From an uncultured bacterium (GTDB lineage Bacteria; T1Sed10-126), in NCBI GenBank assembly GCA_964631325.1, contig CAZVWJ010000002.1:5848-69847 (forward strand): a stretch of DNA of 64,000 bases, written 5' to 3'. Numbering within the stretch: position 1 is the stretch's first letter; each line of letters begins with the position of its first letter. A program made the translations under genes and the position numbers. Below are positions 45,101-60,864 of the stretch, piece after piece. The notes beneath the pieces are model-generated. The model was not told the DNA's origin and made no database searches. It worked only from the letters and a program-made list of their open reading frames with translations.

Positions 45101-48100
45101 CCCTGGTCCGGTCCCACCTGGTATGTAAACGATAACTATACGGGGGACGAAATTTACACCTCCACCGCCGGTTCAGACACTAACACCGGCGGCCCCTCGG
45201 ATCCCTTCCGAACCATTTCAGAAGCAATGAGTCATGTCGCCGCCGAAGATACTATCCTGGTCGACGCCGGCACTTACGGTGAAACTGTCGCCTTTATAAC
45301 TGACGGCCTCACTCTGGCCGGAGCCGGGTCAACCGCTACTAGCTTCGATTTCGGGGACAGCTCGACTGTCACTGCAGCCGTTGGTATTTATTCTGACACC
45401 CACAGCGGTCTGTTAATAAAAAATCTGAGCATTCGCAATTATATGATCGGTCTGTCTTTCAGCGGTGTTAGCGCTTCCCGGGTAGAAAACGTAACTGTTG
45501 AAAATTGTGGTGAAAGTGGGATGTACCTCTGGAATTCCGGCGGGGTTGTATTTAACCAGGTTGTTTCCAGGAATAATATTTTTGACGGACTTACCGTAGA
45601 TGGTTCAAAAAATATCAATGTTATTTCCAGTCGATTTACGGGCAACGACTCCAACGGACTTGTGTTTATTCAGTCGGACACAGCACTTGTTAAAGAAAAT
45701 CATCTCACCGAAAATAGCCAGGCCGGCCTTTTATTGGACAATACCTCAACTTCCCTGGCCAGCAATAACCTGATCACTGGCAATAACTCCGGTATGGAGT
45801 TAATTGGCGGATTCTTCAACGAAGTAATTCAGAACGATATCCGCAACAATACTAACTACCAGGTTTACAACACTACTTTTGACAACCTGTTTCGGAAAAA
45901 CAACCTCGTAGCCTCAACAACTAATCCGGACAGCGTAGTCAAGGATACTTCCTCGGGAATTGATTTTATCTACAACTGGTGGGGAACAACCGCCCACACA
46001 GCAATTGATACAAAGCTAACTGGTTTCGGGAGCTATGAACCCTACCGGCTTGGCCAAGTCGACACAGCCCCCGGAGCTGACACTATGGCATTCGCCTCAC
46101 CCATTGTAGACACAGCAGTGGTACTCGGTTCCGATACCGTAGAAGTTCGCTGGCAACAGATAACTACAAATGAAGAGGGCAGCGCGATGAGCGCTGATTT
46201 CAACAGTTATGTTATTTATCGTTCCACCTCCGATACCGTCACCGACTGGAAGCTGTATGAAATAGCCAGCCTTGCCGGTTCAATGAGCGACACTGATTAT
46301 ATTGATACCGATGTAACTCCCGGCCAAACTTACTACTATCGAATTACCGCCCTGGATGATCATACCCTGGACGGCGGCGACGGCACGGCTAAATTTGACA
46401 ATGAATCCTATTTCAGCAGTACAATCGCCGCCACCCCAACCCATTCCGGCCCCACCTGGTATGTGAACGATAACGATACCGCCGGAGACGTCTACACTTC
46501 AGCAGTTGGTTCCGAGACCCACACCGGCGGCCCCTCGGATCCCTTTCGAACCATTTCAGAAGCAATGAACCACGTCTCCGCCGGAGATACTATCCTGGTC
46601 GACGCCGGCACCTACGGCGAGACGGTGGCTATCGACACCAACTCCCTGGCCCTGGTCGGGGCTGATTCTCAAAGCACGATAATTGATTCACCCGGAGCTA
46701 ATGTCAATCTATACGCTTCAAACGCAGATAATATCTCCATTCGAAAATTGGGAGTCCAGAATAGTTCAGTTGGAATTGAACTTGATTCGATAACAAACTC
46801 CCTGGTTGAAAACGTTCACGTGGACACTGCAACAAATAATTCCTTGTATCTCTATCTTTCTGATTCTAATACAATTCGCTCTTCCTATTTTGGGCAGAGC
46901 GATAATGACCAGGTTATGCTCTATACTTCCAGCAATAACTTGATAGAACACAACATGGCTGAGAACGGTTGGGGACGAAGCTATTACCTGCAGGCTTCCT
47001 CTAATGACAATAAAATAATTAACAATCTGGCCCGGGCCGGACAATCCGGAATCGTTGTGCGCGGTTCCGATAATGTTCTGGTAGCGGATAATACAATCAG
47101 GGATATGTCGGGTTTCGGTATTAGCGCCCAGTTCTATCCGGTTAATTTAAGGGTCTTGAGAAATACCCTCTATAACGTGGGCAGTGTCAACCTGGAGTTA
47201 GAAGCTGACGGTTGTTACGTCGCTCAGAACACGGTGGACTCTCCCGGTAGCTGGGCTGTACAAACAAACGGTGGAGGAACAATTACAAAAAACAATATAT
47301 ACACAGGAACAATACTACCGGACAGCGGTGCTCTTAACTCAGGAGACTCTGTCGTTGACCTAACTCGCAACTGGTGGAATACCACTGACGAAAATCTGGT
47401 AGCCCGAAAAATTTACAATTCCGGCGCCGGAACCACAATATACAGCCCTTATCGGCTCGGCTTAGTAGATACCGGCGTCGGTGCCGACACTGTTGCTCCC
47501 GCCACTCCCGTTGCCGACACCGCCTTTGTGGTCGGCAGTGACACAATTGAAGTCCGCTGGCAGGAGGTCACCGCAGACGAAGACGGCAGCAGCCTCGATT
47601 TTAACCGTTACAATGTCCACCGTTCTAAATACGACACGGAAACCGATTGGTTAAGCAACACTTCTTCCAAAGGGTCGATAATGAGCGCCGGGGATACCAG
47701 TATTACAGACGATAACAATCTCATTCCCGGCCAGACCTACTATTACCGGGTCCTGGCCAAGGACGCTTCCTCGCCGGCAAACTCCTCTTTCTTCAGCGAT
47801 TCAATGAGTGTAACGCTACCTGCCTGGAACGGTCCTACCTGGTACGTAAATGATAACGACACCACCGGCGATGTTCATACCTCCGCCGTCGGTTCTGACT
47901 CCAACACCGGTGGACCAGACGATCCCTTCCGGACAATTTCCTATGCTCTTTCCCAGGTTTCAGCCGGGGACACCGTGCTCGTGGATGCCGGCACCTACGG
48001 AGCAACCGGCGAAACTATTACTCTAAGTGTTAACGATCTTGCCCTTGTCGGTGCTGACTCTGCAACCACGATACTTGATTTTGGAGATACTTCACCAGGA

Positions 48101-49201
48101 GCGGGGGCCGGTTTGTATGCATTAAACAGGCAGAATTTACAGATCCGCGATCTGGCAGTTAAAAATTCTTATCGCAATATCTACTGGGATGGAGTTACTT
48201 ATTCCAATATCGACAACGTCCGGGTTACAAATAGCGGTTACGTTGGTGTAACCCTGCTGGGCTCCGATACTAACGTAATTAAAAACAGTGACCTTTCAAA
48301 CAATTACGGCTACGGGATTTCATTCAATTCTGCCAACGATAATCAACTTAGAAATTCCAGCTTAACTTCAAATTATAATGATATTGAAATTAATTCCAGT
48401 TCTGACAATACAATAAGCGAAAATCACCTGACCGGGTCAGGGGCTGATGCTATCATTCTCTCTGTAGCCAGCCAAAACAAAATTTCAAATAATGTCATTG
48501 AAAATAGCCAGGGTGATGGAATTTATATTGCTAATTCTCAATTCAATACAATCGTCCAGAATGAAATCAAGAATAACAACGATTACCAAATTTATCAGAC
48601 CGGGACCACCGGAGAGATAAATCTCGCCACCAAAAATAACATCGCTGCTTCGGCCACCAACCCCGACTCGCTGGCTTACAACGACGTTACTTCTGATACA
48701 ACCAATTTTACTTACAATTACTGGAACAGCACCGACTCCGCCGTCATCAGCAGTGGGTTAGCCGGCGCAGGAAATACTCTCCAGGTCCCCTATCTATTGC
48801 GTAAAGTAGATACCGGCGTCGGCGCCGACACTAATCCGCCCGCAATACCGGCTAATGTCGTTGCTGACACCGTAGCCGGAGGAACAATCACCATAAGCTG
48901 GGACGAGGTTACTACTAACCAGGACGGCAGCACCATTGGTGACTTTGAAAAATACACGGTTTACCGGCTCAGAGCAGATACAGTTACCGACATAAAGAAT
49001 AACTACAATGATGTAAGTTATACCTCCGGCGGTGCCACTGATACTTCCGTTACCAACTCCCCCGGTGGACTTGCTTCGGGGGATACTTACTATTATGTCA
49101 TCACTGCTATTGACAATCCTCTCACGGACGGTGGAGATGGGACCTCCGACTTTATAAACGAGTCCTATTTCAGCACTATGATTAGTGTAGTCGCCCCGTA
49201 A
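42140..49201 (+). CDS. Giant (2353 aa) secreted surface protein: PQQ-type beta-propeller followed by four tandem [right-handed parallel beta-helix + fibronectin-III] modules
   Basis: Signal peptide, then 8 or more PQQ-like blades (YALxxDGSEKWTF.TGG.I.SSPA). Four modules follow, each opening GPTWYVNDNDT.GDVYTSA.GS...GGP.DPFRTIS.A......GDTILVDAGTYGETVA and containing NxxxxN beta-helix rungs and an FN3 segment (Y.IYR......W......DTDY.DT.V.PG.TYYYRI.A.D). Confidence 0.8.
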   Translation: MTAKKQNIWFCLTAVFLLFWLVLPARSTDTLPEKYVSAGTDQLKEKQKYQLAGISFGPVEAVEEQVEELDNKANDYWIAHWQDNNCTGDASDPECAGVVNFPQKVLDYWKNHPHDRPDSWAVSVNSPSASTTSSSPDTVAETHSSPLWRAKTSGVLTSAPAVDEEGTVYFGSYDKKVYALYPDGSEKWTFTTGGAIHAAPALGAGDTLYVASEDKYLYALDTEAGNVLWKYKTAGRLHSSPAISSNGIIYVGCTDNKLYAIRPDSDGDDEGELAWTYTTGGRITSSPTLSADSTVYVGSWDKNLYAVRPDNSNDGEGELNWKVSTGGEIKSSPALGADGTIYFGSHDKHLYALNSDGTEQWSSNLEGAVWSSPVIGSDSTVYVGSWNGKLYALNHKDGSTEWTFTTGERIVASPLVGSKRIYVGSHDNTLYALNPDTPGGPGSWKFSTGEAIFAGTNLRDTSLYVVSGDNYLYALEADTSGLAQSSWPKFGGNHKNTGQTPEQLPEEYSGPTWYVNDDTTAGDVYTSAPGSNENPGSPDAPFLTISRALEAATTGDTIMIDAGTYGETVAIDTNSLALVGADSSPAGTVIDAGDSSAASKLIVLRSDTVTNLQIKNLRVANGYWGLILYNTDNSLVENVMATSNKSVGIGLVNGSEFNTLSEVSTSNNDSGGLTIDSANNLVKNSNFSKNGDDGLSIALSATANIVYNNLVSNNDQAGINVEGSDNEIRQNQIINNNLSTTSNDGGLELGDAENGEIAENNLVVRNLIKDNYNGIELRGTNQNLIHSNELVNNAYHLYLEDTATTFNDTFTKNNLTSAGDSLVMAVGFSGTEAKLLRNWWGMTDEIAIQSKIQGPLADAVVFQPYRLNKVDTGTGADTLAPATPVADTVAGSHSGIALSWNQVNTDENNNPLTDFAEYRIYKTTSGTETDWKNNALMVSSISSVSDTDYVDTSVTPGETYYYRITAVDSAPAENESFFSSTLIAQAKPWSGPTWYVNDNYTGDEIYTSTAGSDTNTGGPSDPFRTISEAMSHVAAEDTILVDAGTYGETVAFITDGLTLAGAGSTATSFDFGDSSTVTAAVGIYSDTHSGLLIKNLSIRNYMIGLSFSGVSASRVENVTVENCGESGMYLWNSGGVVFNQVVSRNNIFDGLTVDGSKNINVISSRFTGNDSNGLVFIQSDTALVKENHLTENSQAGLLLDNTSTSLASNNLITGNNSGMELIGGFFNEVIQNDIRNNTNYQVYNTTFDNLFRKNNLVASTTNPDSVVKDTSSGIDFIYNWWGTTAHTAIDTKLTGFGSYEPYRLGQVDTAPGADTMAFASPIVDTAVVLGSDTVEVRWQQITTNEEGSAMSADFNSYVIYRSTSDTVTDWKLYEIASLAGSMSDTDYIDTDVTPGQTYYYRITALDDHTLDGGDGTAKFDNESYFSSTIAATPTHSGPTWYVNDNDTAGDVYTSAVGSETHTGGPSDPFRTISEAMNHVSAGDTILVDAGTYGETVAIDTNSLALVGADSQSTIIDSPGANVNLYASNADNISIRKLGVQNSSVGIELDSITNSLVENVHVDTATNNSLYLYLSDSNTIRSSYFGQSDNDQVMLYTSSNNLIEHNMAENGWGRSYYLQASSNDNKIINNLARAGQSGIVVRGSDNVLVADNTIRDMSGFGISAQFYPVNLRVLRNTLYNVGSVNLELEADGCYVAQNTVDSPGSWAVQTNGGGTITKNNIYTGTILPDSGALNSGDSVVDLTRNWWNTTDENLVARKIYNSGAGTTIYSPYRLGLVDTGVGADTVAPATPVADTAFVVGSDTIEVRWQEVTADEDGSSLDFNRYNVHRSKYDTETDWLSNTSSKGSIMSAGDTSITDDNNLIPGQTYYYRVLAKDASSPANSSFFSDSMSVTLPAWNGPTWYVNDNDTTGDVHTSAVGSDSNTGGPDDPFRTISYALSQVSAGDTVLVDAGTYGATGETITLSVNDLALVGADSATTILDFGDTSPGAGAGLYALNRQNLQIRDLAVKNSYRNIYWDGVTYSNIDNVRVTNSGYVGVTLLGSDTNVIKNSDLSNNYGYGISFNSANDNQLRNSSLTSNYNDIEINSSSDNTISENHLTGSGADAIILSVASQNKISNNVIENSQGDGIYIANSQFNTIVQNEIKNNNDYQIYQTGTTGEINLATKNNIAASATNPDSLAYNDVTSDTTNFTYNYWNSTDSAVISSGLAGAGNTLQVPYLLRKVDTGVGADTNPPAIPANVVADTVAGGTITISWDEVTTNQDGSTIGDFEKYTVYRLRADTVTDIKNNYNDVSYTSGGATDTSVTNSPGGLASGDTYYYVITAIDNPLTDGGDGTSDFINESYFSTMISVVAP
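43669..49198 (+). repeat. Four tandem intragenic repeats of about 1.35 kb (module starts near 43669, 45111, 46449 and 47832)
   Basis: Nucleotide-level identity between modules, for example 46449-46680 against 43669-43900 and a near-identical 45-nt run at 45182 and 46520. This indicates recent internal duplication. Confidence 0.7.
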
Positions 49202-49488: not shown

Positions 49489-50310
49489 ATGAACATTTTC
49501 AGTGACTTGCGTAAATTTCTCTTTATTGTATTGACTTTTCTTGCCTTTACAGCCCTTCCCGCCAGAGCACAATCTCCGGGCCATTTTACTCTCGGCTACG
49601 GAATCTCCAACTTTGAATACACAGAACCCAAGATGACGGAATCCGGCACACTCCAGCACCTGCAGGCAAAATACGAAAAATTTAAAGAACATCATTATAT
49701 TGGTATGGATGGCAACCTCTGGGCCGGTAACCTGAAATACGATGGAGAAACACTCGAAGAAAATCCTCGTCCTGTTACCACGGAAACTGATGATTTTATC
49801 CTTACAACGAATTTACGGGTGGGCACACCACAGCCTCGGAAAAGCGGAGTTCTTATTCCTTACCTGGGATTAGGATACAGGTACTGGAACAATGTAATCA
49901 CTGAAAGCAATATAACCGCTCGCACTGAACGAACCACCCAGTATTTCTACTCACCACTTGGTTTTCTACTGGCAAGCAATTCTGCGAGATTCGGCAAAAC
50001 AATTCTTAAAATGGAATATCTTTACTTCTGGGCGGGAAAAGTAACCACTCAATTTGGTAACGCACCAGAGTTAAATAATGACCAAAACCAGGGAAAAGGC
50101 GGAAGGATTGCGCTAACATTTTTACTCGGAGGTCAACAGAAAATTAGTCACAGCCTGAGTATATTTTTCAACTACTGGGACATTGAGCCTTCGGAATCCG
50201 ATTCTATCCTGGTGGATATCGATAACGACTCCACAAAGGAAAACGTGGCTTTTTATGAACCGGCCAACAGCACGGCAATTATCGGAGCTCAGTTAAATAT
50301 TACGTTTTAG
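49489..50310 (+). CDS. Outer-membrane beta-barrel protein (porin-like, 273 aa)
   Basis: Signal peptide (FIVLTFLAFTALPARAQ), amphipathic beta-strand periodicity and a C-terminal ...QLNITF ending in Phe. Confidence 0.6.
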   Translation: MNIFSDLRKFLFIVLTFLAFTALPARAQSPGHFTLGYGISNFEYTEPKMTESGTLQHLQAKYEKFKEHHYIGMDGNLWAGNLKYDGETLEENPRPVTTETDDFILTTNLRVGTPQPRKSGVLIPYLGLGYRYWNNVITESNITARTERTTQYFYSPLGFLLASNSARFGKTILKMEYLYFWAGKVTTQFGNAPELNNDQNQGKGGRIALTFLLGGQQKISHSLSIFFNYWDIEPSESDSILVDIDNDSTKENVAFYEPANSTAIIGAQLNITF

Positions 50311-51284
50311 ATATCCGCCGGATCAGCCGGTTCAACCTGGGAAGGCTTAATATTACTTAAAACCCGCTGAAGTCCCCGGACGTGTGCCCCCAATTGCCGG
50401 CGGGCCTTGAGGTTTGAGTGGGGATCATCACTGGCTTGGCTGTGCCGGACTTTAAGCCGGTCATATTCACTTCTGATTTTACTTAAGCGATCCCGGGGAA
50501 TTCCTTCCTTAATTATACTCTTGAGATGAGTATACAATTTCTTTGCCGCGCCGGCAGCAGCTTTTAAATCCGAGTAATCAACCGCATAGTCATAATCATG
50601 GTATTCGCTTTCATGCGGGGATTTAAACTTAATCTCGACCAGGCCCGCAGTTAGTATTTCCCGGGCCGTAGCCTGTAGTTCCTCGGCCATTTTTGGCGGT
50701 CGGACCTGCAAATCCTTACTCCTGGGAGTGGCCAGCAGGTTTTCTAATTTTTCTCCTGACATTTTCATCCCTTTGGAAAGACCGGCCACATCCGGGTTCA
50801 AAGTTTTGCATATATTTCTATGGCCCCGCCACTTTTCTTCTTCCAGAAAATGTAAAAGAAGCAGAGCTGCATCATAAAGTAAGTTTTGAGTGCTTTTCAG
50901 ACAGGCTAAATCTTCCGTTGTGACTCGTACCCGCCGGGACAAAACCTCAAGGATCTTCCGACGGAATTTGTGACTTTTTTTCAGCAGGTTATCGAACTGT
51001 TTTTCTCCAAGTCGCAAGCAAACTGTATCTATTCTGGCTTTGACCGCGGCTGACCGGTCAGATTCCTCTCCCAGCAGGGCCATTTCTCCGACCAGTTCTC
51101 CCGGCCCAAGGGAAGTTATAAAACTAACTTCATCATCTTCCTTGAGCACTTCCACAAGTCCCTCCTGGATAATATAAAAACTGTCCCCGTGGTCCCCTTC
51201 TTTAAATAAATATTCGTCGGGTTCATAGTTTTGCCGATACTCTTCAAAACCTTCAAGAAGTGAATTTTTCACTTGTCTCACCAA
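50307..51284 (-). CDS. Cyclic-nucleotide-binding domain protein with uncharacterised C-terminal domain
   Basis: N-terminal cNMP-binding fold (YLFKEGDHGDSFYIIQEGLVEV...GPGELVGEMALL...RSAAVKA). C-terminal roughly 200 aa have no recognised motif. Confidence 0.65.
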   Translation of the reverse strand: MVRQVKNSLLEGFEEYRQNYEPDEYLFKEGDHGDSFYIIQEGLVEVLKEDDEVSFITSLGPGELVGEMALLGEESDRSAAVKARIDTVCLRLGEKQFDNLLKKSHKFRRKILEVLSRRVRVTTEDLACLKSTQNLLYDAALLLLHFLEEEKWRGHRNICKTLNPDVAGLSKGMKMSGEKLENLLATPRSKDLQVRPPKMAEELQATAREILTAGLVEIKFKSPHESEYHDYDYAVDYSDLKAAAGAAKKLYTHLKSIIKEGIPRDRLSKIRSEYDRLKVRHSQASDDPHSNLKARRQLGAHVRGLQRVLSNIKPSQVEPADPADI

Positions 51285-51624: not shown

Positions 51625-52686
51625 CTACCGTTCAAACCGATAGTTATTAACAGCCCAGCTAAATTCCCGGACTATCACCCAGACACTGGCGGCAACCGGA
51701 ATTCCGAGGATCATCCCAACTATACCGGCAAGCTGTCCCCCCCCAATAACCACGAGGATAACAATAAGTGGGTGGAGATTCATACTCTGGGAAAAAGAAT
51801 AGGGTTTAACAAAGATGTTATCAATCACCTGGACAACAACCATTACTCCTCCAACTGTAAGAATCGCCATTACATTTTCAGTTTCCATCAACTTGACAAT
51901 AATCGCGGGTATTGCTCCGGCCGCCGGGCCAATATAGGGGACTACGTTCGCTATTCCAACAAAAATTCCAATGGTGGTAGCATAAGGTACAGAAAATATT
52001 TTCAAACCAATTACACTTAACAGAGCTATAATAGCCGCTTCTATAGCCAGCCCGCGCATATACTGCCCAATCTTACGGTCAACTTTAAAATAAATGTTAT
52101 AGACCATTTCAAAAAACATATTGGGAACAGCACCAAGAAAAAACTTTTCCATTTCCCTTTGATCCCGAACAAGGAAAAAAGCTATGAACGGAATCACCAC
52201 CATATACTGAAGGACCAGGTATAAATTAATTAAGAATCCGGTAAGCTGACTAAGAATCCACTGGTAAGCCCGATCGAGGGGCGTCTGCAGAGTCCCCCGG
52301 GGCAAAAATCCAAAGGCACCTTCCAGGTCAGCAAGAAAATCATAAATCAGCTTTCTCAGGTTCTGTTCACTGAGTATTTCTTTCAGACTGACCGCCTGGC
52401 GCCAGAACAAAGGACTATAAAACACAATTAAAACGGTAATGACTAAAATGAGCAGTAAAAAAATAATTGTCGTAGACCAACTGCGAGAAAAACCCTGCAT
52501 TTCCAAATATTCCACGGCCGGCCTGATCAGGTAGGAAAAAAGGAAAGCTAGAAACGTCATTATTACGAGATGATACAACTGAGGAATAAGGTAAAAAGCC
52601 ACCCCGATGACAAAGAGTGGAAAAAGATAATATATAGTGTTAATTACACTCCGGGGAGTTATATACTTATTCTCCGTCTTTGCCAT
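51625..52686 (-). CDS. AI-2E family transporter (PerM/YhhT/TqsA-like)
   Basis: 353 aa, 8 TM helices, conserved GIANVVPYIGPAAGAIPAIIV segment of the AI-2E family. Confidence 0.8.
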   Translation of the reverse strand: MAKTENKYITPRSVINTIYYLFPLFVIGVAFYLIPQLYHLVIMTFLAFLFSYLIRPAVEYLEMQGFSRSWSTTIIFLLLILVITVLIVFYSPLFWRQAVSLKEILSEQNLRKLIYDFLADLEGAFGFLPRGTLQTPLDRAYQWILSQLTGFLINLYLVLQYMVVIPFIAFFLVRDQREMEKFFLGAVPNMFFEMVYNIYFKVDRKIGQYMRGLAIEAAIIALLSVIGLKIFSVPYATTIGIFVGIANVVPYIGPAAGAIPAIIVKLMETENVMAILTVGGVMVVVQVIDNIFVKPYSFSQSMNLHPLIVILVVIGGGQLAGIVGMILGIPVAASVWVIVREFSWAVNNYRFER

Positions 52687-53224
52687 CTTGTTCCCTTATT
52701 TCCCGCAGTTGCTGACGTAATTCAAGATTTTTCTCATTTGTTTCGTGAAGCCAATTTCCAACCCGCCGGGAAAGGTTAAACATCACATTTAGTGCACAGC
52801 GGGGATGTCGTTCAGAAAATTTTAAGAATTCCTGCCGGAATAATACCTGAATGGTGGCCGGAGTTTGAGCCCGAGCGGTCCCCGTACGCTTGTGCTCAAA
52901 ACAGAGGGCTAACTCCCCCAGGGAACTATTAGCAGTAAGAGTATTCAACTTTCCTTCATCCGCTGTCCGTTCGGCCTTGCTTACTTTTACTTCTCCCTCC
53001 TGGATTAAAAACAGTGCACTGGCCGGATCGCCTTCAGAAAATATAACTTCGTTTTTATTATACTGTCGTTCGTGAAGGAGCGTGGAAATCAACCGGCAAT
53101 CAGAAATCTTAAGCCCCTCAAAAATTTCAAGCTTCGAGAGAAGTCGCATCATTTCATCATCAGTTTCCCGGGAAAAGGAAAAATTTTCGTTCCACCAATC
53201 TTCCATCTGTTGCCAGACTGACAT
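52667..53224 (-). CDS. Stand-alone cyclic-nucleotide-binding domain protein
   Basis: 185 aa. VIFSEGDPASALFLIQEGEVKV...LGELALCF...RTGTARA cNMP-binding signature and a C-terminal coiled coil. Its stop overlaps the transporter start by 20 nt. Confidence 0.7.
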   Translation of the reverse strand: MSVWQQMEDWWNENFSFSRETDDEMMRLLSKLEIFEGLKISDCRLISTLLHERQYNKNEVIFSEGDPASALFLIQEGEVKVSKAERTADEGKLNTLTANSSLGELALCFEHKRTGTARAQTPATIQVLFRQEFLKFSERHPRCALNVMFNLSRRVGNWLHETNEKNLELRQQLREIREQDGKDGE

Positions 53225-53403: not shown

Positions 53404-54345
53404 GTGATGGTTAATTATTTCACTTCCCCCTCCCGGCTGTTTAGCGTTTTGTATGAATACTCTTATTTAACCCTGGAAATGTTGCCTCTACTTCTTTTTG
53501 GGGCAGCGGTTGGGGCCTGGTTACAGGTCATTGTTTCACCAAAATGGCTGCGCAAATTTTTCGGCGGAAAGGGATTTTTCCCCTTAATTGCCGCAACAGG
53601 GGCCGGGGCACTTTTGCCCGGCTGTGGCTGCATGACCGTTCCTCTGGGTAAAGGATTAAAGGACAAAGAAGAAATTCGCATTAGCACAGTAGCAGTCTTG
53701 CTTCTTGTCTCCCCTCTGCTCTCTCCCCAGACCATCCTGATCACCTGGGGGATGCTCGGCTGGAAATACTTGCTCGCTCGAATAATTGCTACTATAAGTG
53801 GGGGCCTTCTCCTGGGAACCACACTTGAATCAATTGGAACAGAATCAAATTCCGATTTATCAGAAAATGTCAGCCCAAACAACAATTGCAGACAAAATCA
53901 GCAAATTAACTGTCCGGCTACAAAAGAATCCGATGGGACAGGTTATAAATTCTGGATTAAGCTGAAAGACATCTTCAGCCTGGTCCTCCCTTATTTTTTA
54001 ATTGGGATGGGCCTGGCCGCCGCCATTGCGCTATTTTTACCTCCGGAGAGTATTCCAACCATGCTCGGGGGGGAATCTTCCGGGCTTGCCTATCTACTCT
54101 CCGCACTTGTTGGTATTCCCCTCTACGTCTGCGAGGGCCAGGAGGTTCCTTTTACCTATACTCTAATCAACCACGGACTGGGAGCCGGACCTTCCTTCAC
54201 TTTTCTTCTCGGTTCCATTGGTACCTGCATCCCTACCCTCAGCATGCTCCCCCGGGTGATTGGTCTGCGCTCGACAGTGATTTATACTATCTTCTGGCTT
54301 TGTTTCACACTCACCGCTGGCTTTCTCTTCGGTCTCTTTATTTGA
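53404..54345 (+). CDS. Predicted permease, DUF318/YraQ family
   Basis: 313 aa membrane protein with ALLPGCGCMTVPLGKGL, the Cys-containing loop typical of DUF318 permeases, and a duplicated half. Confidence 0.6.
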   Translation: MMVNYFTSPSRLFSVLYEYSYLTLEMLPLLLFGAAVGAWLQVIVSPKWLRKFFGGKGFFPLIAATGAGALLPGCGCMTVPLGKGLKDKEEIRISTVAVLLLVSPLLSPQTILITWGMLGWKYLLARIIATISGGLLLGTTLESIGTESNSDLSENVSPNNNCRQNQQINCPATKESDGTGYKFWIKLKDIFSLVLPYFLIGMGLAAAIALFLPPESIPTMLGGESSGLAYLLSALVGIPLYVCEGQEVPFTYTLINHGLGAGPSFTFLLGSIGTCIPTLSMLPRVIGLRSTVIYTIFWLCFTLTAGFLFGLFI

Positions 54346-55869
54346 CTACTCACTGAATACCTGGGCCTGAAAAGTGTAAATTTTTGTCGCCGGATTTTTC
54401 CAGCACTTTATCTCCAAACCCGCCTTGCTGTGACAGAGGTGGGCGAGAAATTCCCGCTTGTTCCAGCCGGTCTCCTCGGCTACCTGGGGAAGGTAAACTC
54501 CCCGGTTGCCGCCCCGGATCACCATCACTCCATCCCGGCCCGGTTTAACCCGGGCCGCAGAATCCACTTGCTTCATCGGAGTTAACACGGAAATTTCAAT
54601 TTTCAGCTCGGATAGTTCTTCCGCAGTAACGGGATTACTGCGGAACCTCGGGTCCCGGGTTGCCTTGATCGCCATCTCCCGAACCGCTTTCCAGAGCGGG
54701 CGGCGGGCTCGCATCTCACCTATACAGCCCCTCAGTTGACCGTTATCTTTTCGGCGCAAAGTGACAAAAACTCCACGTTTTTCATTTAATTTTTCCTTCT
54801 GAATGGTCACCTCCGGCCGCTGGTTATGAGCCAGCCAGGCCCGAAGAGTTGAACGGGCCAGCGCCAGCATCCGCTTCTGCTCAGTTTGATTTAACCACCC
54901 CCGTCCGGCAACGGCAGATCCCCGTTTTTTCGGCTTTCCGTTTTTATCTACCAGGGCAACGGCGCCGTAGCCCACGACCTTTTTCCGTTTGCCGACAATA
55001 TCACCGGAGTTGGCATAACGGAGCGGAACTGCCTCCACAGAACCAAGCAACCGGGCAAGTCGGACCGCAGTGAGCACCCCCCGCAGACCACAGAAAATAC
55101 CCCCCCGCCCCTGGCGAAGTGTCTTTTCGGCCCACCGGTCCAGTTTCTTCACGGACAATTTCTCAAGCGTCCGGAGCGTCTTTTGATCAATTTTCTTAGC
55201 CTGCTCATAAGGTAGATAATGGGACATATCGGTAGAAATTAGGAGAAGCACATCCTCCGAACGAATGATTTCAGTCAGCACAGTAGCTAGTTTTTGCGAT
55301 AATTTTGTCCCCTGCCCGGAAACTACGGGAACAATCTTAAATTGGTCCAGCGTCTGCTGGAGAAAAGGCAACTGCACTTCCAGGCTATGCTCCCGGCTGT
55401 GAGCGGTCTTAACAAATTCAATGGCAGTGTCCGCCCGGAGAAGGCGCCGGGCCATTTCTGAATCCACCTGGACACTGCCCAGCGGCGTTTCCCACCGTCC
55501 CCGCGGCCAGACTGAGATGCCAGAAAATCGTTTCCGGTGCGAGGGGCCAAGTAAAATTACAGTTTTATAACTGCGATCTTTCAGTTGCCGATAAGCCCAG
55601 CCGCTTACCGGCCCCGAATACCGGTAACCGGCATGGGGAACGATTAACCCGATCAACCGGCCCTTCAACTGCTGATTCCTGGCCCGACCAAGATAACCGG
55701 TAATTTTTCGTTTTAATTGGTCTGGAGCCGCCGGATAAAACTTGCCCGCAAACACTGCCGGCCGGGTATATTTATCATTCTCCGGTGCGGCGCCACGGCA
55801 ACCGGCAGTTACCAGGAGAAAACTACAGCTCAGCACTAACAGCCAGAGTTCACTTTTTTGAAGCCGCAT
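54346..55869 (-). CDS. AmmeMemoRadiSam system fusion protein: Memo-like (protein B) + AMMECR1 domain, with N-terminal signal/lipoprotein-like leader
   Basis: Leader MRLQKSELWLLVLSCSFLLVTAGC. Memo motif GLIVPHAGYRYSGPVSGWAY...DMSHY. AMMECR1 core GVFVTLRRKDNGQLRGCIGEM. Confidence 0.8.
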   Translation of the reverse strand: MRLQKSELWLLVLSCSFLLVTAGCRGAAPENDKYTRPAVFAGKFYPAAPDQLKRKITGYLGRARNQQLKGRLIGLIVPHAGYRYSGPVSGWAYRQLKDRSYKTVILLGPSHRKRFSGISVWPRGRWETPLGSVQVDSEMARRLLRADTAIEFVKTAHSREHSLEVQLPFLQQTLDQFKIVPVVSGQGTKLSQKLATVLTEIIRSEDVLLLISTDMSHYLPYEQAKKIDQKTLRTLEKLSVKKLDRWAEKTLRQGRGGIFCGLRGVLTAVRLARLLGSVEAVPLRYANSGDIVGKRKKVVGYGAVALVDKNGKPKKRGSAVAGRGWLNQTEQKRMLALARSTLRAWLAHNQRPEVTIQKEKLNEKRGVFVTLRRKDNGQLRGCIGEMRARRPLWKAVREMAIKATRDPRFRSNPVTAEELSELKIEISVLTPMKQVDSAARVKPGRDGVMVIRGGNRGVYLPQVAEETGWNKREFLAHLCHSKAGLEIKCWKNPATKIYTFQAQVFSE

Positions 55870-56878
55870 TTTTCTGCAGGTCCTCCTGCCAGATTCCCGG
55901 AATTTTTTTACCGCTAAATTTACTTTTGCCGTCTTTAAGATTATTTTCCAGGAGAGTATAACCCCGGCGGCGAATCAAAAGTTTCCCCGTATAAGGAGAA
56001 TACGTGCTCTCTGCCTTATGCCCCGGCACATTGCCGACATAAACATAATTGAGGCCAACCTCGCGGGCGATCTCTCGGGCTCGCTCCAGAGACTTGATCG
56101 GAGTCGGTGGATGTTGCTTCAACTTATACTGCGGATAGAAACGGGCAAAATGAAGCGGGACATTGGGACCAAGATTCTTCTTAATCCACTCACACATCCG
56201 ACGGATAGTCTTCGGACTGTCATTTTCCGTCGGAATAATTAAATTAGTCAGCTCCAGCCACGCCCCTTCCTCCTTGATAATTTTTATCGCTTTCAAGATC
56301 GGACCCCTTCGCCCGGCGCTCATTTTGCGATAAAAACCTTTATTGAATCCTTTTAGGTCAACGTTAAACGCATCTACGTATTTCGTCAAACGACGCAAAG
56401 GTTTTGGATTGATAAATCCGCAGGAGTGAACCACATTAAGAATCCCGGCCTTTTTTGCCAGTTTTGCGGTCTCCAGCATATATTCGTAGAAGATTGTCGG
56501 CTCCGTGTAAGTATAAGCGATTGCCGGACAATCTTTTTTCTGGGCCAGCTTAACAATCTGCCGGGGAGAAAGGCGGTAAGCCCGTTTTTTGGCCGGATCG
56601 GCCTGGGAAATCTGCCAGTTCTGACAGAACTTACAGCGTAGGTTACAGCCAGCAGTCGCAATCGACAGCGCTCTTTCGCCGGGAAGAACGTGAAAAAACG
56701 GTTTCTTCTCAATCGGATCAACGTGGACGGCAACCGGCCGGCCATAAGTTAACGTATACAACGTACCTCCGATATTTTTCCGGGCCCCGCACAAACCCGT
56801 CTCTCCTTCTTTCAGGAGGCAGCGATGAGGACAGAGATTGTCCCGCACCCGGTTATTCGACAATTTCTCGTAAAACAT
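55850..56878 (-). CDS. AmmeMemoRadiSam system radical SAM enzyme
   Basis: N-terminal Cys pair (CPHRCLLKEGETGLC), the CNLRCKFC (CX3CX2C) radical-SAM cluster motif and a PflA-like architecture. Its stop overlaps the Memo-AMMECR1 start. Confidence 0.85.
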   Translation of the reverse strand: MFYEKLSNNRVRDNLCPHRCLLKEGETGLCGARKNIGGTLYTLTYGRPVAVHVDPIEKKPFFHVLPGERALSIATAGCNLRCKFCQNWQISQADPAKKRAYRLSPRQIVKLAQKKDCPAIAYTYTEPTIFYEYMLETAKLAKKAGILNVVHSCGFINPKPLRRLTKYVDAFNVDLKGFNKGFYRKMSAGRRGPILKAIKIIKEEGAWLELTNLIIPTENDSPKTIRRMCEWIKKNLGPNVPLHFARFYPQYKLKQHPPTPIKSLERAREIAREVGLNYVYVGNVPGHKAESTYSPYTGKLLIRRRGYTLLENNLKDGKSKFSGKKIPGIWQEDLQKNAASKK

Positions 56879-57003
56879 TGCCTCGCGGCGGGGGGTTATT
56901 TTCGGCGGAGCACTGCGGGAATACTGATACAGAGGATAGATTATAAAACCGGCCAGGAGAAAAATAATTACCGTGGAAATGATGATTTTAGTCCGGTCGA
57001 TAG

Positions 57004-59364
57004 TTAAAACCTCCAGACGGTAAACACGAGAATTAAACTGCCCGCTTTTATTATAGCAAGCAAAGTAAAAGTTTGCGCAAGACCCAGTAATGGCAACAAA
57101 ATTACCGGGACTAAAATTCCGGCAAACCAGCCGCCGAGTAAATCGGCACCATAAAGCAAACCTGACGTTGAGCCAACCGTCCCTCCCCCGGTTAAAATAA
57201 GCTGGTTGGCGAGGGGGAACTGGGCACCAACCAAGAATCCGCCGAGCAAAAAAAGCAAATAAAGCCAGGGACGTGGTTCGGCAAGATAAAAGGTGGAAGC
57301 ATAATTGTTTAAAAAATTAATTACCCGGGGAAAAAACAGGACAAAAAAAACAAGAGCAAGTTCCAGCAACAGATAATAACCAAAATTTTCCTGTTCACCG
57401 GGCAAAAACCCGGTTACTGTTAAGGCCCCGGCTGCCAGACCGGCCATAGAAGCGGTGAGCAATAGCCCGAGTTCGTAATAAAGTGAACCGTAAAATACCT
57501 GGAAAGCAAAGGAAAGTACGAGGGTGACCATCATGCAGATAAACCCTGAACTCAACAGCGAAAAGGAAAACACAGGACGGCGACTCCAGCCGGGCAGAAA
57601 GATTATGAAGGCCAGCAATATCAGAAATATCAACAGAAAAGTCAGGCACCCCCAGATAAAATGCTGAAAAGTAAACAAACTCAGCCGGCGGAATAGTTCA
57701 CCCAACCGTGCCCCAAACAGGCGGTCCAGGTGCTGAAAAAATTTGAACACTGCAATTGGCTTAAAATCCCGGTTCATCTGTCCATTCTTTGTTTCCAACA
57801 AGGAAGCACCGGGGGCAACAGAAGTTAACCGGTCGGCTAAGTAGCGGGAAGTTAGCACACTGGTCTGCAGTTGCCGCTTTTTCAAGCGGCGCTGAAGCTG
57901 AGAAATTGTAAGCTGTTGCAACCACTCAGCCGGCGAAGCAAGGACTAAATTTTCACTGCCGGGAATAACCCGGACTTCGGCAAAAACGGACTGTAGACTG
58001 TTGATCACCGTTCGATTCAGGGCAAGTAATTCCGGGGAGAGACGGGAAAGGGAAGCCGGCAAACGGAAAGCAAAAATACCCCGGGGAGTAAGCCGGCGCC
58101 GGACACTACGAAAGAAGCGCCAGGTAAAAAAACGGTTACTCTCCAGGTTGGCCGGAGCGGCAAGCCCGACTAAAATAACCTCGTATTTTCGTTTGGTTGA
58201 TTGAATGTACTGCCGGCTGTCCCTGGTTATTACATTAACCCGGTCGGCCCCCAGCTCTTTTTCCGGTAGTTCCCCGGGTAACTTTCGATAGGCCGTCAGC
58301 ACCAGCGGATCCAGCTCCAGGTAATCAATTCTCTTAACCGGCTGTTTGAGCAACTCATTTATCAAACCACCGGGGCCACAACCCAGCAGGGCAACCCGTT
58401 CCGGTCGGGGATGAAAAAGGAGAGGAAGATGCCCGAATTCTTCCGCTCGTACCTGGTCGGGGCCGGGTAAGCTGGTCACTGGCAAGCCGTTAAACAGAAG
58501 GGTATACTGGTCAGCCCGGCTGGTAATCATGATATTTTTATAGGGAGAATTTTTGTAATAAACAAGCTCATACCCCCGCCAGCGCCGGGCCAGGGAAAAA
58601 TCCTGCAGCCAGGCTCCCCCACCGAACAATAGAAACACCAACAGCAAAAGAGTGACCACCGTTAAACCGGTAGTCAGCCAGTTTGGAAACTGCAGATAAG
58701 TAGTCTGGACGAGAAGCAATGAAAAATCAAAAAGGGCGAGGAAAATGAGAATTTGAAATGGTCCGAAATAGGGCAGGAAAAGATAAGTTACAGCAAAACC
58801 ACCGGCAATGGCACCAACTGTTTCCCAGACATAAACCCGGCCGATACTACCTGATTTTGAATCCCGAAAATAAAAGTTAAAAACCCGGCAGGCACAACTA
58901 AAAAGACCGCCGTGAAAAAGTCTAACCAGTAATAGAATTAAAAATGAAGCGGTGAAGCTCCAGATGAAACCGACATTCTGGGCCGGAGGGACCCCGACCA
59001 GCGGCTTGGCCACCCGGGTCAGGTAAAGAACCCCGGGAAGCCCGAGAAAGAAAAGAGCATGGAGAAAAAAATAAAGGACAAATTTTGCTTTCCACTGCTC
59101 AACCAACCAGCCAAAAAGAACCGAACCGGCGGCGCCGACGAGCACCCAGTTGGCAAGGATAAATCCAACAATCAGTTCAATACTGCAGATACTGACCAGA
59201 AATTCCCGGGCCAGCAAAACTTGGACAACAATCCCACTCAAGCCGGCCCAGAAAACTGTAAAAAGAAAAAACAGGCGATTAAGCCTGTCTCTCTGCTCGG
59301 ACTTAATAAAGCAAACCAGGCTGTTTATCCTCATAGCGGGGCATGATCTCTCCGGGACCGGCAT
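57004..59364 (-). CDS. Polytopic membrane protein with embedded spermidine-synthase-like (PABS) domain (fused MFS-like/polyamine aminopropyltransferase family)
   Basis: 786 aa. N- and C-terminal TM bundles flank a PABS domain (RVALLGCGPGGLINELLKQPVKRIDYLELDP...VILVGL). The start is ambiguous (59364 or the internal Met at 59334). Confidence 0.7.
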   Translation of the reverse strand: MPVPERSCPAMRINSLVCFIKSEQRDRLNRLFFLFTVFWAGLSGIVVQVLLAREFLVSICSIELIVGFILANWVLVGAAGSVLFGWLVEQWKAKFVLYFFLHALFFLGLPGVLYLTRVAKPLVGVPPAQNVGFIWSFTASFLILLLVRLFHGGLFSCACRVFNFYFRDSKSGSIGRVYVWETVGAIAGGFAVTYLFLPYFGPFQILIFLALFDFSLLLVQTTYLQFPNWLTTGLTVVTLLLLVFLLFGGGAWLQDFSLARRWRGYELVYYKNSPYKNIMITSRADQYTLLFNGLPVTSLPGPDQVRAEEFGHLPLLFHPRPERVALLGCGPGGLINELLKQPVKRIDYLELDPLVLTAYRKLPGELPEKELGADRVNVITRDSRQYIQSTKRKYEVILVGLAAPANLESNRFFTWRFFRSVRRRLTPRGIFAFRLPASLSRLSPELLALNRTVINSLQSVFAEVRVIPGSENLVLASPAEWLQQLTISQLQRRLKKRQLQTSVLTSRYLADRLTSVAPGASLLETKNGQMNRDFKPIAVFKFFQHLDRLFGARLGELFRRLSLFTFQHFIWGCLTFLLIFLILLAFIIFLPGWSRRPVFSFSLLSSGFICMMVTLVLSFAFQVFYGSLYYELGLLLTASMAGLAAGALTVTGFLPGEQENFGYYLLLELALVFFVLFFPRVINFLNNYASTFYLAEPRPWLYLLFLLGGFLVGAQFPLANQLILTGGGTVGSTSGLLYGADLLGGWFAGILVPVILLPLLGLAQTFTLLAIIKAGSLILVFTVWRF

Positions 59365-60769
59365 TAATGTAAGTGGGGTCAGTGATTACAAAAAAACGTT
59401 TTTCTACCTGAAAATAAAAACCCGGTGGTGTCGAGGGAAACTCAACCGCAGCCGCCACATGCCCGGGAAAATCGAGACCAATCACCCGGCGATTCAGAAT
59501 TTCCCGGACCAGCCAGGTGAACATCAGTGCCCGGTCCTCGCAGTCAGAATAGGGATAATGCAGAGTTTCCACCGGAACCAGGTAGTTTTCCGAACCAAAT
59601 TGTTGAGGGTCTGTTTTATATTTAAACGCGTTCTGAACAAAATTCAGTAAAAACCTCACTGAAGTTTTGAAATTCATCCCGCGCACTTCACTCTTCAACT
59701 GCTCGACTAACCTGGTTTCAGCTCCTCCGGCTGGCAAATCTCGGAAGTAATTGCCGAGCGCCAGTTGAGGAACGGTCTTAAAATACTCAACTGCCTGCCT
59801 GTTCACCGGCACCTCAAACACGTATTTTTTACCCTGGAATTCAAAGCTAAACTGCCGGGTATCAATCCCCGCGGCTGAGACCGCAGGCTGTTTTAAACTA
59901 AATTGAAACTCCTTTTCAACCCCCCCGTAGCTATTCTGATAAGTCCGGAGAGAACCGAGTTCAGCCCGAGACTCACGGAACCGGGCAACGTAAAACCGGT
60001 GACCGTCCAGGTCAAAAAAGGGTAGCTGATAAATTCGGTCCCGGGCGGCATAAAGCAACTGTATTCGGTCTTCAGAATAGCCGACACGAACCCGGAAACC
60101 CCGTTTTAACAGAATTCCCCAGGTAACCAGCCGGGCCACGTTCTGCTTACTGTAATATTTTTCCGTCAGCCGGTTCACCAGCAGCAGCTCGCCCCAGTCA
60201 TCCAGGCCAAGCGCTGTCCGGGCCCGGGTAAGCTGATTATCCAACGACTCAAAAGGAAGCGGCGCAAAGTCCTTCCAGAAATCAGCAATCCCCTCCCGGT
60301 CAACTTCAGCCAGCGTTAATCTTGACCACCCGGACTTAAAAACAAAGGGAATTTTTTGCCCGAAGAAATTAAGCGTAACTTTTGTTTCATTCCGTTTGAT
60401 TTTATTTTTTTCCGGGGCCGTAATAACCTGCGGCTTTTTACGCTCCCTGGTTTTCTCCAATTTTTCGGAAGGCAAACTAATTTCTTCAGTTTTTATCTCC
60501 CGCGGCGCCGTGGAAGCTTTGCCCGTGGATTCCGGAATCACTTCCGGTTCCGGCACAGTATCCTCAACTTCCCCTTTCAGCAGGTTCATCTTTTTCCAAC
60601 GTTGTTTTAAAAACTTGTGAAACTTGCGGTTTCGCTCCTTTTCGAACGCCTGAATTTTTTGCCGGCGCTGGCGTTTCCAGTTCTCGAAATCAGTCTGTGC
60701 CTTCACACCCTTTACTACAAATCCACAAAAAAACAGCAACAAAATTACAAAAACAAATTTCCTGCCCAT
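59303..60769 (-). CDS. Secreted/membrane-anchored transglutaminase-like cysteine protease superfamily protein
   Basis: Start chosen at the ATG at 60769 (MGRKFVFVILLLFFC) with a GGAGGGAG RBS. Lys-rich linker. C-terminal Cys/His/Asp core (PYSDCEDRALMF...FPGHVAAAVEF...VITDPT). Confidence 0.65.
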   Translation of the reverse strand: MGRKFVFVILLLFFCGFVVKGVKAQTDFENWKRQRRQKIQAFEKERNRKFHKFLKQRWKKMNLLKGEVEDTVPEPEVIPESTGKASTAPREIKTEEISLPSEKLEKTRERKKPQVITAPEKNKIKRNETKVTLNFFGQKIPFVFKSGWSRLTLAEVDREGIADFWKDFAPLPFESLDNQLTRARTALGLDDWGELLLVNRLTEKYYSKQNVARLVTWGILLKRGFRVRVGYSEDRIQLLYAARDRIYQLPFFDLDGHRFYVARFRESRAELGSLRTYQNSYGGVEKEFQFSLKQPAVSAAGIDTRQFSFEFQGKKYVFEVPVNRQAVEYFKTVPQLALGNYFRDLPAGGAETRLVEQLKSEVRGMNFKTSVRFLLNFVQNAFKYKTDPQQFGSENYLVPVETLHYPYSDCEDRALMFTWLVREILNRRVIGLDFPGHVAAAVEFPSTPPGFYFQVEKRFFVITDPTYINAGPGEIMPRYEDKQPGLLY

Positions 60770-60864
60770 AATTACTCCCTCCGGAAGACAATTTAATTGC
60801 ACCATACAGTTTTATTTTAACTTGAACTCCACACGTTATATAATAAATAAAGGAGCTAATAAAT

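Follow-up and report, generated by a model that had tools for sequence, protein, structure and literature searches.

The closest described relative of the locus considered here is AmmeMemoRadiSam, a prokaryotic system made up of three families, namely AMMECR1 (protein A, TIGR04335), Memo (protein B, TIGR04336) and a radical S-adenosylmethionine (SAM) enzyme (TIGR04337). The conservation of Memo and AMMECR1 extends from archaea to humans, and both have been linked to disease. To our knowledge, no biochemical function is known for either of them and the function of prokaryotic AmmeMemoRadiSam is unassigned; modification of a base or of an isoprenoid was reportedly proposed for Memo systems by Burroughs and colleagues in the Journal of Biological Chemistry in 2019. 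The system as such and the fusion of its proteins A and B are already known, the fused proteins being named 'protein B/protein A' by JGI, and possession of the AMMECR1 domain strongly indicates an anaerobe (PMC13386939). The locus described here lies in a 64,000-nucleotide (nt) stretch of DNA from an uncultured bacterium (T1Sed10-126; contig CAZVWJ010000002.1), hereafter the window, and comprises a Memo-AMMECR1 fusion with a predicted lipoprotein leader, a radical SAM gene that probably encodes a targeting sequence of its own, and a linked gene for a membrane protein with a SpeE-like domain. We consider it probable, albeit far from certain, that this is a membrane- or envelope-targeted variant of AmmeMemoRadiSam, all three proteins of which would meet outside the cytoplasm or at the membrane.

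The three genes are located on the minus strand and form a tightly coupled operon, which runs from 59364 to 54346 in the order SpeE-like gene, radical SAM gene and fusion gene. The SpeE-like gene (57004..59364, minus strand) encodes 786 aa, with the start placed by NCBI at Met11 (59334), and is translationally coupled to the radical SAM gene, which spans 55850..56878 (minus strand) and encodes 342 aa as called. The stop of the latter overlaps the ATG of the fusion gene (54346..55869, minus strand; 507 aa) by 20 nt, and an AGGAGG is found 12 nt 5' of this ATG (55869). Each of the AmmeMemoRadiSam families is recognised above its curated cut-off, with 268 bits against a cut-off of 26 for TIGR04336 (residues 36-305 of the fusion), 171.6 against 99 for TIGR04335 (residues 333-505) and 366.5 against 220 for TIGR04337 (the 342-aa protein). 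The three components, the fusion of two of them within 507 aa and the overlapping radical SAM gene directly upstream had all been recognised in an original prediction made from the letters of the window, and are borne out by the Pfam and NCBIfam matches and by the overlap itself. The adjacent and overlapping genes of the three families are thus shared with AmmeMemoRadiSam as described, whereas the window differs in that proteins B and A are joined, in this order, in one chain, that the fusion and probably also the radical SAM enzyme carry an N-terminal targeting sequence, that a fourth component, the 14-transmembrane (14-TM) SpeE-like protein, is linked to the system, and that the radical SAM enzymes of the window and of one related locus (L003) do not have the C-terminal CxxC..CxxC.

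In the fusion, Pfam places Memo at residues 39-303 (219.7 bits) and AMMECR1 at residues 336-505 (178.2 bits). A database search gave more than 7,600 relatives, the closest 120 of which were used for the leader counts below; all 120 are Memo-AMMECR1 fusions, and the top non-self match is 45% identical. The Memo domain (54955..55764, minus strand; residues 36-305) has an intact metal site (H79, H111, H217, C260 and D214), and H79, H111, H161, E164, D214, H217 and C260 are invariant among 35 homologues. It is followed by a flexible, Lys/Gly-rich linker (54874..54954, minus strand; residues 306-332), which is variable and gapped in the alignment, and by the AMMECR1 domain (54355..54873, minus strand; residues 333-505) with LRGCIGE at residues 379-385. 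Here R380, G381, C382, G384 and C479 are invariant (35 homologues), Cys382 being the cysteine of LRGCIGE (54724..54726) and Cys479 a second invariant one. The AlphaFold2 model of the fusion consists of a helix at residues 5-22, a low-confidence tether, Memo at 34-308, a disordered linker with a predicted local distance difference test score (pLDDT) below 50 at residues 316-322, and AMMECR1 at 328-507. As its predicted template modelling score (pTM) is 0.62 despite a mean pLDDT of 92, the model indicates that the two domains are not rigidly packed together. The Memo fold superposes on MEMO1 (7KQ8/3BCZ) with a template modelling score (TM-score) of 0.83-0.84 and the AMMECR1 fold on PH0010 (1VAJ) with 0.79. 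The structures of human MEMO1 (3BCZ/7KQ8) and of archaeal AMMECR1 proteins (1VAJ, 1ZQ7, 1WSC) share with the fusion the folds, the His/His/His/Cys/Asp metal site and the LRGCIG motif, but represent separate, soluble proteins of the cytosol or nucleus, whereas the window encodes one chain with a flexible linker and a lipoprotein-type leader.

This leader spans 55798..55869 (minus strand; residues 1-24) and is laid out as MRLQKSE-LWLLVLSCSFLLV-TAG-C24, that is, a basic n-region (MRLQKSE), an uncharged h-region and the lipobox VTAG-C, whose cysteine (Cys24, 55798..55800) falls within positions 15-35 as the pattern rule has it. The N-terminus, MRLQKSELWLLVLSCSFLLVTAGC, agrees with the PROSITE PS51257-type lipobox rule, as does no other of the 45 open reading frames (ORFs) of the window, and a Sec/signal peptidase II lipoprotein-type leader with Cys24 is predicted on this basis. 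A hydrophobic segment precedes the Memo domain in 113 of the 120 nearest fusion homologues, at an identity of 41-46%. Lipoboxes were found in 26 of the 120, an approximately 30-fold enrichment given that shuffling the N-termini leads one to expect 0.88 and gave at most 4 in 200 rounds, and many other leaders end in a manner typical of signal peptidase I (SPI) sites (..LYA/Q or ..AEA/Y). Independently, 85 related loci were fetched, in which 70 fusions have an in-frame leader, 11 are truly without one and 4 are truncated, leaving 81 scorable for the fusion leader. The leader had been likened to a signal peptide or lipobox in the original prediction, and both the agreement with the rule and the conservation in homologues speak for its being genuine; a uniform lack of leaders among homologues, which had been named there as a refutation, is not what is seen. 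It had also been called unusual there, which no longer holds: with leaders in 113/120 nearest homologues and 70/81 scorable loci, they appear from the sequences to be the rule among fused homologues and not the exception. In the window, an outer membrane protein (OMP)-beta-barrel-like protein (49489..50310), slightly under the Pfam cut-off, suggests a diderm envelope, where a lipoprotein makes sense.

Leaderless close homologues were considered as a disproof of the leader and rejected as such, as two of three checked proved to be start-calling artefacts. Among the seven homologues without a leader in the set of 120, two appear to be 5'-truncated. Of the five apparently leaderless ones, three were checked at the DNA level. 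In two of these, an ATG further upstream in the same frame extends the protein by a lipoprotein-type leader, while in the third (L088) a TAA stop parts a lipobox leader remnant, 'GCQK', from the Memo domain, which could be a pseudogenised leader or an assembly error. The clipped or interrupted leaders are located at L086:5926-6000, L087:~5905-6000 and L088:~640-725, and the public calls P0031 and P0022 clip the leader. For annotation, the lesson is that leaders in the Memo-AMMECR1/radical SAM family are often clipped by gene callers.

The radical SAM enzyme carries CNLRCKFC (CX3CX2C) at residues 78-85 (56624..56647, minus strand), and its N-terminal Cys16/20/30 are conserved at 0.93-0.95 among 42 homologues. 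There is no SPASM-family model among the 20 NCBIfam matches, Pfam gave Radical_SAM only, and a sequence search of the PDB returned no relative of the enzyme. The nearest characterised relatives are the glycyl-radical activases (PflA TIGR02493, NrdG and YjjW), which have CX3CX2C near the N-terminus of the core and are of similar size. However, the scores stay far under the cut-offs (56.6 bits against 231.75 for PflA TIGR02493), no glycyl-radical enzyme is encoded nearby, and the window enzyme has the additional conserved Cys16/20/30 triad and, probably, a targeting leader. The C-terminal CxxC...CxxC is kept by 40 of the 42 aligned homologues and absent only from the window and L003 enzymes; residues 291-328 of the former (55895..56008, minus strand) read SPYT...SKFS instead, with a similar replacement in L003, a lineage-specific loss of what is probably a zinc-ribbon or cluster site.

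As called from ATG 56878, the window enzyme is leaderless. The frame is open for more than 60 codons upstream of this ATG, and an in-frame extension of 41 codons (56879..57001, minus strand), (M/I)DRTKIIISTVIIFLLAGFIIYPLYQYSRSAPPKITPRREA, leads into -MFYEKL and would provide a putative hydrophobic leader or anchor. Its only candidate start is an ATC (57001..56999) 2 nt past the stop codon of the SpeE-like gene, with a Shine-Dalgarno GGAGG (57010..57014, minus strand) 8 nt 5' of it, inside the end of that gene, whereas ATG 56878 is preceded only by GAGG at 2-nt spacing. The L003 radical SAM gene (71% identical) has an ATG at the same junction, 2 nt past the stop, and encodes a 40-aa leader ending in HEA-MFYEKL, and a (K/R/H)EA motif before the core is common to nearly all of the 120 nearest radical SAM homologues. 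Judged from these features, the window gene probably spans 57001..55850 and encodes 383 aa, the form called from ATG 56878 being 5'-truncated; the NCBI call, of 314 aa (P0182), starts even further downstream. The ATC may be a base error in the assembly, or the leader may be silent in the window genome. The extension (DRTKIIIS...) has neither RR nor KR, hence no twin-arginine motif, and no match to TAT_signal.

In the relatives of this enzyme, targeting signals are frequent. The radical SAM gene lies within the flanks in 43 of the 81 scorable loci, and among the radical SAM genes of the related loci there are 26 twin-arginine leaders (for example DRRSFLKCALASGAALG, SRRDFLKWVAGG and TRRQFLQQGL...LASC), four KR variants (SKREFLR, SKRDFLR, TKRAFIK and SKREFLK) and four hydrophobic Sec-like leaders. 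Six leader-bearing enzymes were confirmed as TIGR04337 (349-393 bits), with the profile beginning only at residue 38-81. The cut-off of Pfam TAT_signal (PF10518) was passed by one of nine leaders, and four more gave E 0.01-0.1; as these profile models are short and weak, twin-arginine translocation (Tat) signals were called chiefly by the consensus that the leaders visibly show. The 120 nearest homologues of the window enzyme (54-71% identity) come, by homologue names only, from Omnitrophota, WOR-3 and Margulisbacteria, and 113 of them have an N-terminal extension with a hydrophobic segment, some with lipoboxes. We found no published Tat-targeted radical SAM enzyme in the searchable literature.

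In three clusters (P0234, P0249 with 58 members, and P0279), a lipobox leader, Memo and the radical SAM domain are joined in a single chain. These polypeptides are 650 aa long with a TIGR04337-type domain, as seen at L089:1312-3267, where no AMMECR1 gene is present within the 9.3 kb of contig fetched. It follows from such a chain that in those organisms both domains, Memo and radical SAM, must be located in one compartment. In L089, a YdjY-domain membrane protein follows the gene.

The fourth component, the 786-aa protein, is matched by Pfam Spermine_synth at residues 308-432, while its matches to NF002956, NF037959 and all other NCBIfam SpeE-type equivalogs stay under cut-off. In the AlphaFold2 model (pLDDT 90.7, pTM 0.90), seven helices precede the central domain (57829..58572, minus strand; residues ~265-512) and six long ones follow, the last of which holds two hydrophobic cores. 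The protein is modelled as a 14-TM, MFS-like membrane protein with the domain between TM7 and TM8. Both the 7+7 helix count and the distribution of Lys/Arg residues would fit a 14-TM protein of the major facilitator superfamily (MFS), in which loops 2-3 and 8-9 (10-11 in 14-TM forms) are rich in these residues, with the domain in an extra central hairpin. The helices were counted from alignment-averaged profiles and the AlphaFold2 model, as single-sequence hydrophobicity calling is inconsistent (11-15 helices between homologues). The MFS profile PF07690 has no match in the window protein, and a Foldseek search with its model gave only SpeE-domain matches in the top 50 and none to MFS; some homologues have precomputed PF07690 (MFS_1) matches, and database names are spermine synthase or 'fused MFS/spermidine synthase'. 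At an E-value of at most 1e-30, the family counts 2,492 cluster representatives at 50% identity, the best matches of which align over the full length.

The central domain resembles Thermus thermophilus SpeE (1UIR; TM-score 0.73-0.74, Foldseek E 1e-12) and 3ANX (phmmer E 8e-16), and shares with SpeE, its membrane-fused forms (PRK03612) and NF037959 the fold, the glycine-rich loop, the acidic ribose-binding residue and the adenine-binding Asp. In contrast to these, it has neither the acidic residue that selects decarboxylated SAM (dcSAM) nor the D-x-x-D pair, and it is inserted between a 7-TM and a 6-7-TM block and predicted to be periplasmic. In the alignment to 1UIR/3ANX, the dcSAM-selecting GGG(D/E)G is replaced by GCGPGG in the window (58366..58383), and 30 homologues likewise have GGGxxG without the acidic residue; the catalytic Asp pair of D-L-T-D-P is replaced by G-L-A-A-P and variable in homologues. 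Little or no variation is seen in the glycine loop, in the Glu that binds ribose and in the Asp that binds adenine (G320, G323 and D372 invariant, E340 nearly invariant; P0122 numbering), and the family has a motif of its own, NRF(Y/F)T.EFF. We infer from this residue pattern that the domain binds an adenosyl ligand, such as SAM, 5'-methylthioadenosine (MTA) or 5'-deoxyadenosine, and is no aminopropyltransferase. Among 37 homologues, the mean numbers of Lys and Arg residues per loop add up to 19.6 for the N-terminus, loops 2-3, 4-5, 6-7, 8-9, 10-11 and 12-13 and the C-terminus, but only to 4.9 for the other loops, on whose side the domain is located. The positive-inside rule accordingly predicts an outward-facing domain, and the AlphaFold2 helix count likewise puts it outside.

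The SpeE-like gene is found near 30 of the 70 fusions with a leader and none of the 11 without, and in 27 of the 39 leader-bearing loci with flanks of at least 3.5 kb. It adjoins the system in L003, L004 and L005, and its order and orientation relative to the other genes take three different forms, a variation that speaks for a functional linkage. Wherever the SpeE-like gene is present and the radical SAM enzyme could be scored (27 loci), that enzyme bears a leader, and the gene is absent from all five distinct loci in which the enzyme is leaderless (p ~0.001, hypergeometric). Unbiased clustering of ORFs recovered four recurrent families, namely the fusion (78 loci), the radical SAM enzyme (41), the SpeE-like protein (28) and a DUF362 protein (14). 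A fifth cluster (6 loci, ~600 aa) was discarded, as it consists of spurious antisense ORFs in high-GC loci.

The DUF362 (PF04015) protein, of ~340 aa, neighbours the system in L011, L016, L017, L023, L027, L029, L034, L036, L037, L040, L041, L042, L051 and L077, sometimes in two copies, and most of these proteins carry a Tat-type RR signal. A CcdA/DsbD_TM-like transmembrane conduit for thiol reductant adjoins the system in four loci (L006:~11599-12216, L009:5179-5850, L089:4061-4708 and L090:9549-10223), all of which belong to the clade with Sec-like radical SAM leaders. Both kinds of neighbour would point outward as well. The window has neither a DUF362 nor a CcdA-like gene.

Taken as an envelope-targeted AmmeMemoRadiSam, the locus would work as follows. 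The Memo-AMMECR1 fusion would be tethered by its lipoprotein leader to the outer face of the inner membrane. The radical SAM enzyme would be targeted by a Tat signal in most relatives and by a hydrophobic signal or anchor in the window clade, which in the window itself would start from the non-canonical ATC. The SpeE-like domain would face the periplasm and could bind an adenosyl ligand there, the transporter-like protein supplying or removing the adenosyl cosubstrate or by-product, and the three proteins might form one machine acting on a substrate located in the envelope. For the window itself, the scheme is supported by the open in-frame radical SAM leader, by the GGAGG 8 nt before it and by the junction shared with L003. 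Tat signals agree with the need for an Fe-S cluster that is assembled beforehand. A more specific form of it, which we put forward only tentatively and would not expect to hold in full, is that radical SAM chemistry takes place outside the cytoplasm. An enzyme exported by Tat, or by another route in the window clade, would act together with the lipid-anchored fusion and be served by the 14-TM transporter, whose disabled periplasmic SpeE-like domain would deliver SAM or remove 5'-deoxyadenosine/MTA, and some lineages would add the CcdA-like conduit or the Tat-exported DUF362 protein.

Several points weigh against the envelope-targeted scheme. Outside the cytoplasm, a radical SAM enzyme would have to be supplied with SAM and a low-potential reductant and to carry a preassembled [4Fe-4S] cluster, and we know of no route that exports an Fe-S enzyme by a Sec-like leader without RR, which is the type of radical SAM leader present in the window clade. 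In the window, this leader contains no ATG, GTG or TTG and may be untranslated. In five distinct loci the fusion has a leader but the radical SAM enzyme does not, and ~12% of fused homologues truly have none. Among leader-bearing loci whose flanks reach 3.5 kb or more, seven have neither of the partner genes nearby. The nucleotide-binding residues kept in the SpeE-like domain would be more ordinary in the cytoplasm. Finally, all localisation calls were made in silico by pattern rules and the positive-inside rule. The sequences themselves show the family memberships, the fusion, the conserved leaders, the Tat motifs, the gene linkage and the loss of catalytic residues from the SpeE-like domain, whereas topology, export as such, the part played by that domain and the chemistry are inferred.

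Uncleaved hydrophobic N-terminal segments could instead anchor the fusion and the radical SAM enzyme to the membrane from its cytoplasmic side, next to the SpeE-like protein with its domain also in the cytoplasm, where they would act on a membrane lipid or isoprenoid with ordinary cytoplasmic SAM and reductants. Such an arrangement is the main rival but seems to us unlikely. In its favour, many radical SAM leaders of the window clade are hydrophobic cores of 18-22 residues with neither a clear AXA site nor RR, and several leaders, including those of both window proteins, have at least as many Lys/Arg residues after the core as before it. The ribose- and adenine-binding residues retained in the SpeE-like domain agree with it as well, and the supply of Fe-S clusters, SAM and reductant is known to be trivial in the cytoplasm. 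However, anchoring on the inner face fails to explain why 26-30 radical SAM homologues and the DUF362 neighbour have canonical Tat signals, why lipoboxes are enriched and why c-regions are SPI-like, and it leaves the CcdA-like neighbours without a role. It also conflicts with the charge distribution in the SpeE-like protein, which sets the domain opposite the loops rich in Lys and Arg.

In the original prediction, the radical SAM enzyme was taken to be a cytoplasmic partner that may modify an exported protein, in likeness to the anaerobic sulfatase-maturating enzyme (anSME). Here, Cys382 or another residue of the fusion would be modified before its export by Sec, which we judge improbable. Cytoplasmic radical SAM maturation of exported proteins has precedents in anSME and QhpD. 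The window enzyme is leaderless as called, the loci L022, L026/L064 and L032 are among those that pair a leader-bearing fusion with a leaderless enzyme, the nearest characterised relatives activate other proteins, and a further precedent is given by the HXS system, in which an exported protein undergoes radical SAM maturation in the cytoplasm (PMC13128918). The window also resembles the Tat effector of HXS (PMC13128918) and anSME/AtsB in that a radical SAM gene stands beside a gene for an exported protein with an invariant Cys. Unlike these systems, it has no match to a SPASM or auxiliary-cluster domain, and its invariant Cys is embedded in LRGCIG and not in the sulfatase-type C/S-x-P-x-R, which weakens the proposed likeness to anSME. 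Moreover, the maturases of those systems are cytoplasmic, whereas most homologues of the window enzyme bear export signals of their own, Tat or Sec-like (26 RR, 4 KR and 4 hydrophobic; 113/120), and some are fused downstream of a leader-bearing Memo, which runs counter to the assumption of a cytoplasmic partner; the window itself has the cryptic radical SAM leader with its good Shine-Dalgarno sequence. Leaderless cytoplasmic systems keep the same three families, and hence the relation between the radical SAM enzyme and proteins A and B is independent of export, while the stable fusions of enzyme to enzyme would suggest a complex rather than a maturase with its substrate. Maturation of the fusion in the cytoplasm would be confined to loci whose radical SAM enzyme truly has no leader, which includes the window if the ATC start is dead.

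That the fusion has no alternative in-frame start, as had been stated, is correct for ATG but not for GTG, which is present in frame at codons 12 and 39; the start is nevertheless settled by the conservation of the leader in homologues. It is accordingly very improbable that the leader is a mis-called start or a chance hydrophobic stretch in front of a cytoplasmic protein starting at GTG codon 39, despite these GTG codons and the frequent mis-calling of starts in database entries of the family, since the family profile begins at residue 36 and its conserved R-x-P would be lost from a protein initiated at codon 39, leaders are conserved in most homologues, the mis-calls that were found run the opposite way, with leaders missed, and AGGAGG precedes ATG 55869.

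Envelope targeting of AmmeMemoRadiSam would concern more than the window. The relatives suggest that a large bacterial branch, which spans thousands of clusters from mostly uncultured anaerobic lineages, sends Memo-AMMECR1, and apparently the radical SAM enzyme too, to the membrane or periplasm, which would narrow the search for the substrate to molecules of the envelope. If true, this would give a first clue, by localisation, to the native substrate of the Memo and AMMECR1 families and a new cellular compartment for radical SAM enzymology, and its confirmation would call into question whether radical SAM chemistry is restricted to the cytoplasm, as is assumed. Targeting signals as a systematic feature, above all those of the Tat type on a radical SAM enzyme, appear to be undescribed in the searchable literature, as do the linkage of the 14-TM SpeE-like protein and the chains that unite leader, Memo and radical SAM domain; this literature does not cover Burroughs et al. 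2019, where leaders or the SpeE-like neighbour may already be mentioned. Nothing was found in it on leaders of Memo-AMMECR1 proteins or on fused MFS/spermidine synthases.

As for the surroundings of the operon, an Rfam scan of the window gave no match, and many window ORFs have TTG or GTG starts. A 500-aa ORF (59303..60805, minus strand) lies just 5' of the operon and overlaps the start of the SpeE-like ORF by 62 nt; it has a signal-peptide-like N-terminus, no Pfam match and, by eye only, a C-terminal Cys...His pattern resembling transglutaminase-like proteases, and it is not recurrent in related loci. On the other side, an ArsP_1-type permease (53404..54345, plus strand) is convergent with the fusion gene and ends at 54345, adjacent to the last base of that gene at 54346. 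It has a below-cut-off relation to SO_0444 Cu/Zn efflux and SaoE and was rejected as a member of the system, as it is not recurrent in other loci. Further away, a 2,353-aa protein with beta-propeller, NosD/beta-helix and fn3 domains (42140..49201, plus strand) adjoins a 1,120-aa FecR-domain protein (38184..41546, plus strand), both of which are probably large surface or secreted proteins. An AI-2E-family transporter is flanked by two proteins with cyclic-nucleotide-binding domains (50307..51284, 51625..52686 and 52667..53224, all on the minus strand), of which the 185-aa one overlaps the start of the transporter gene by 20 nt.

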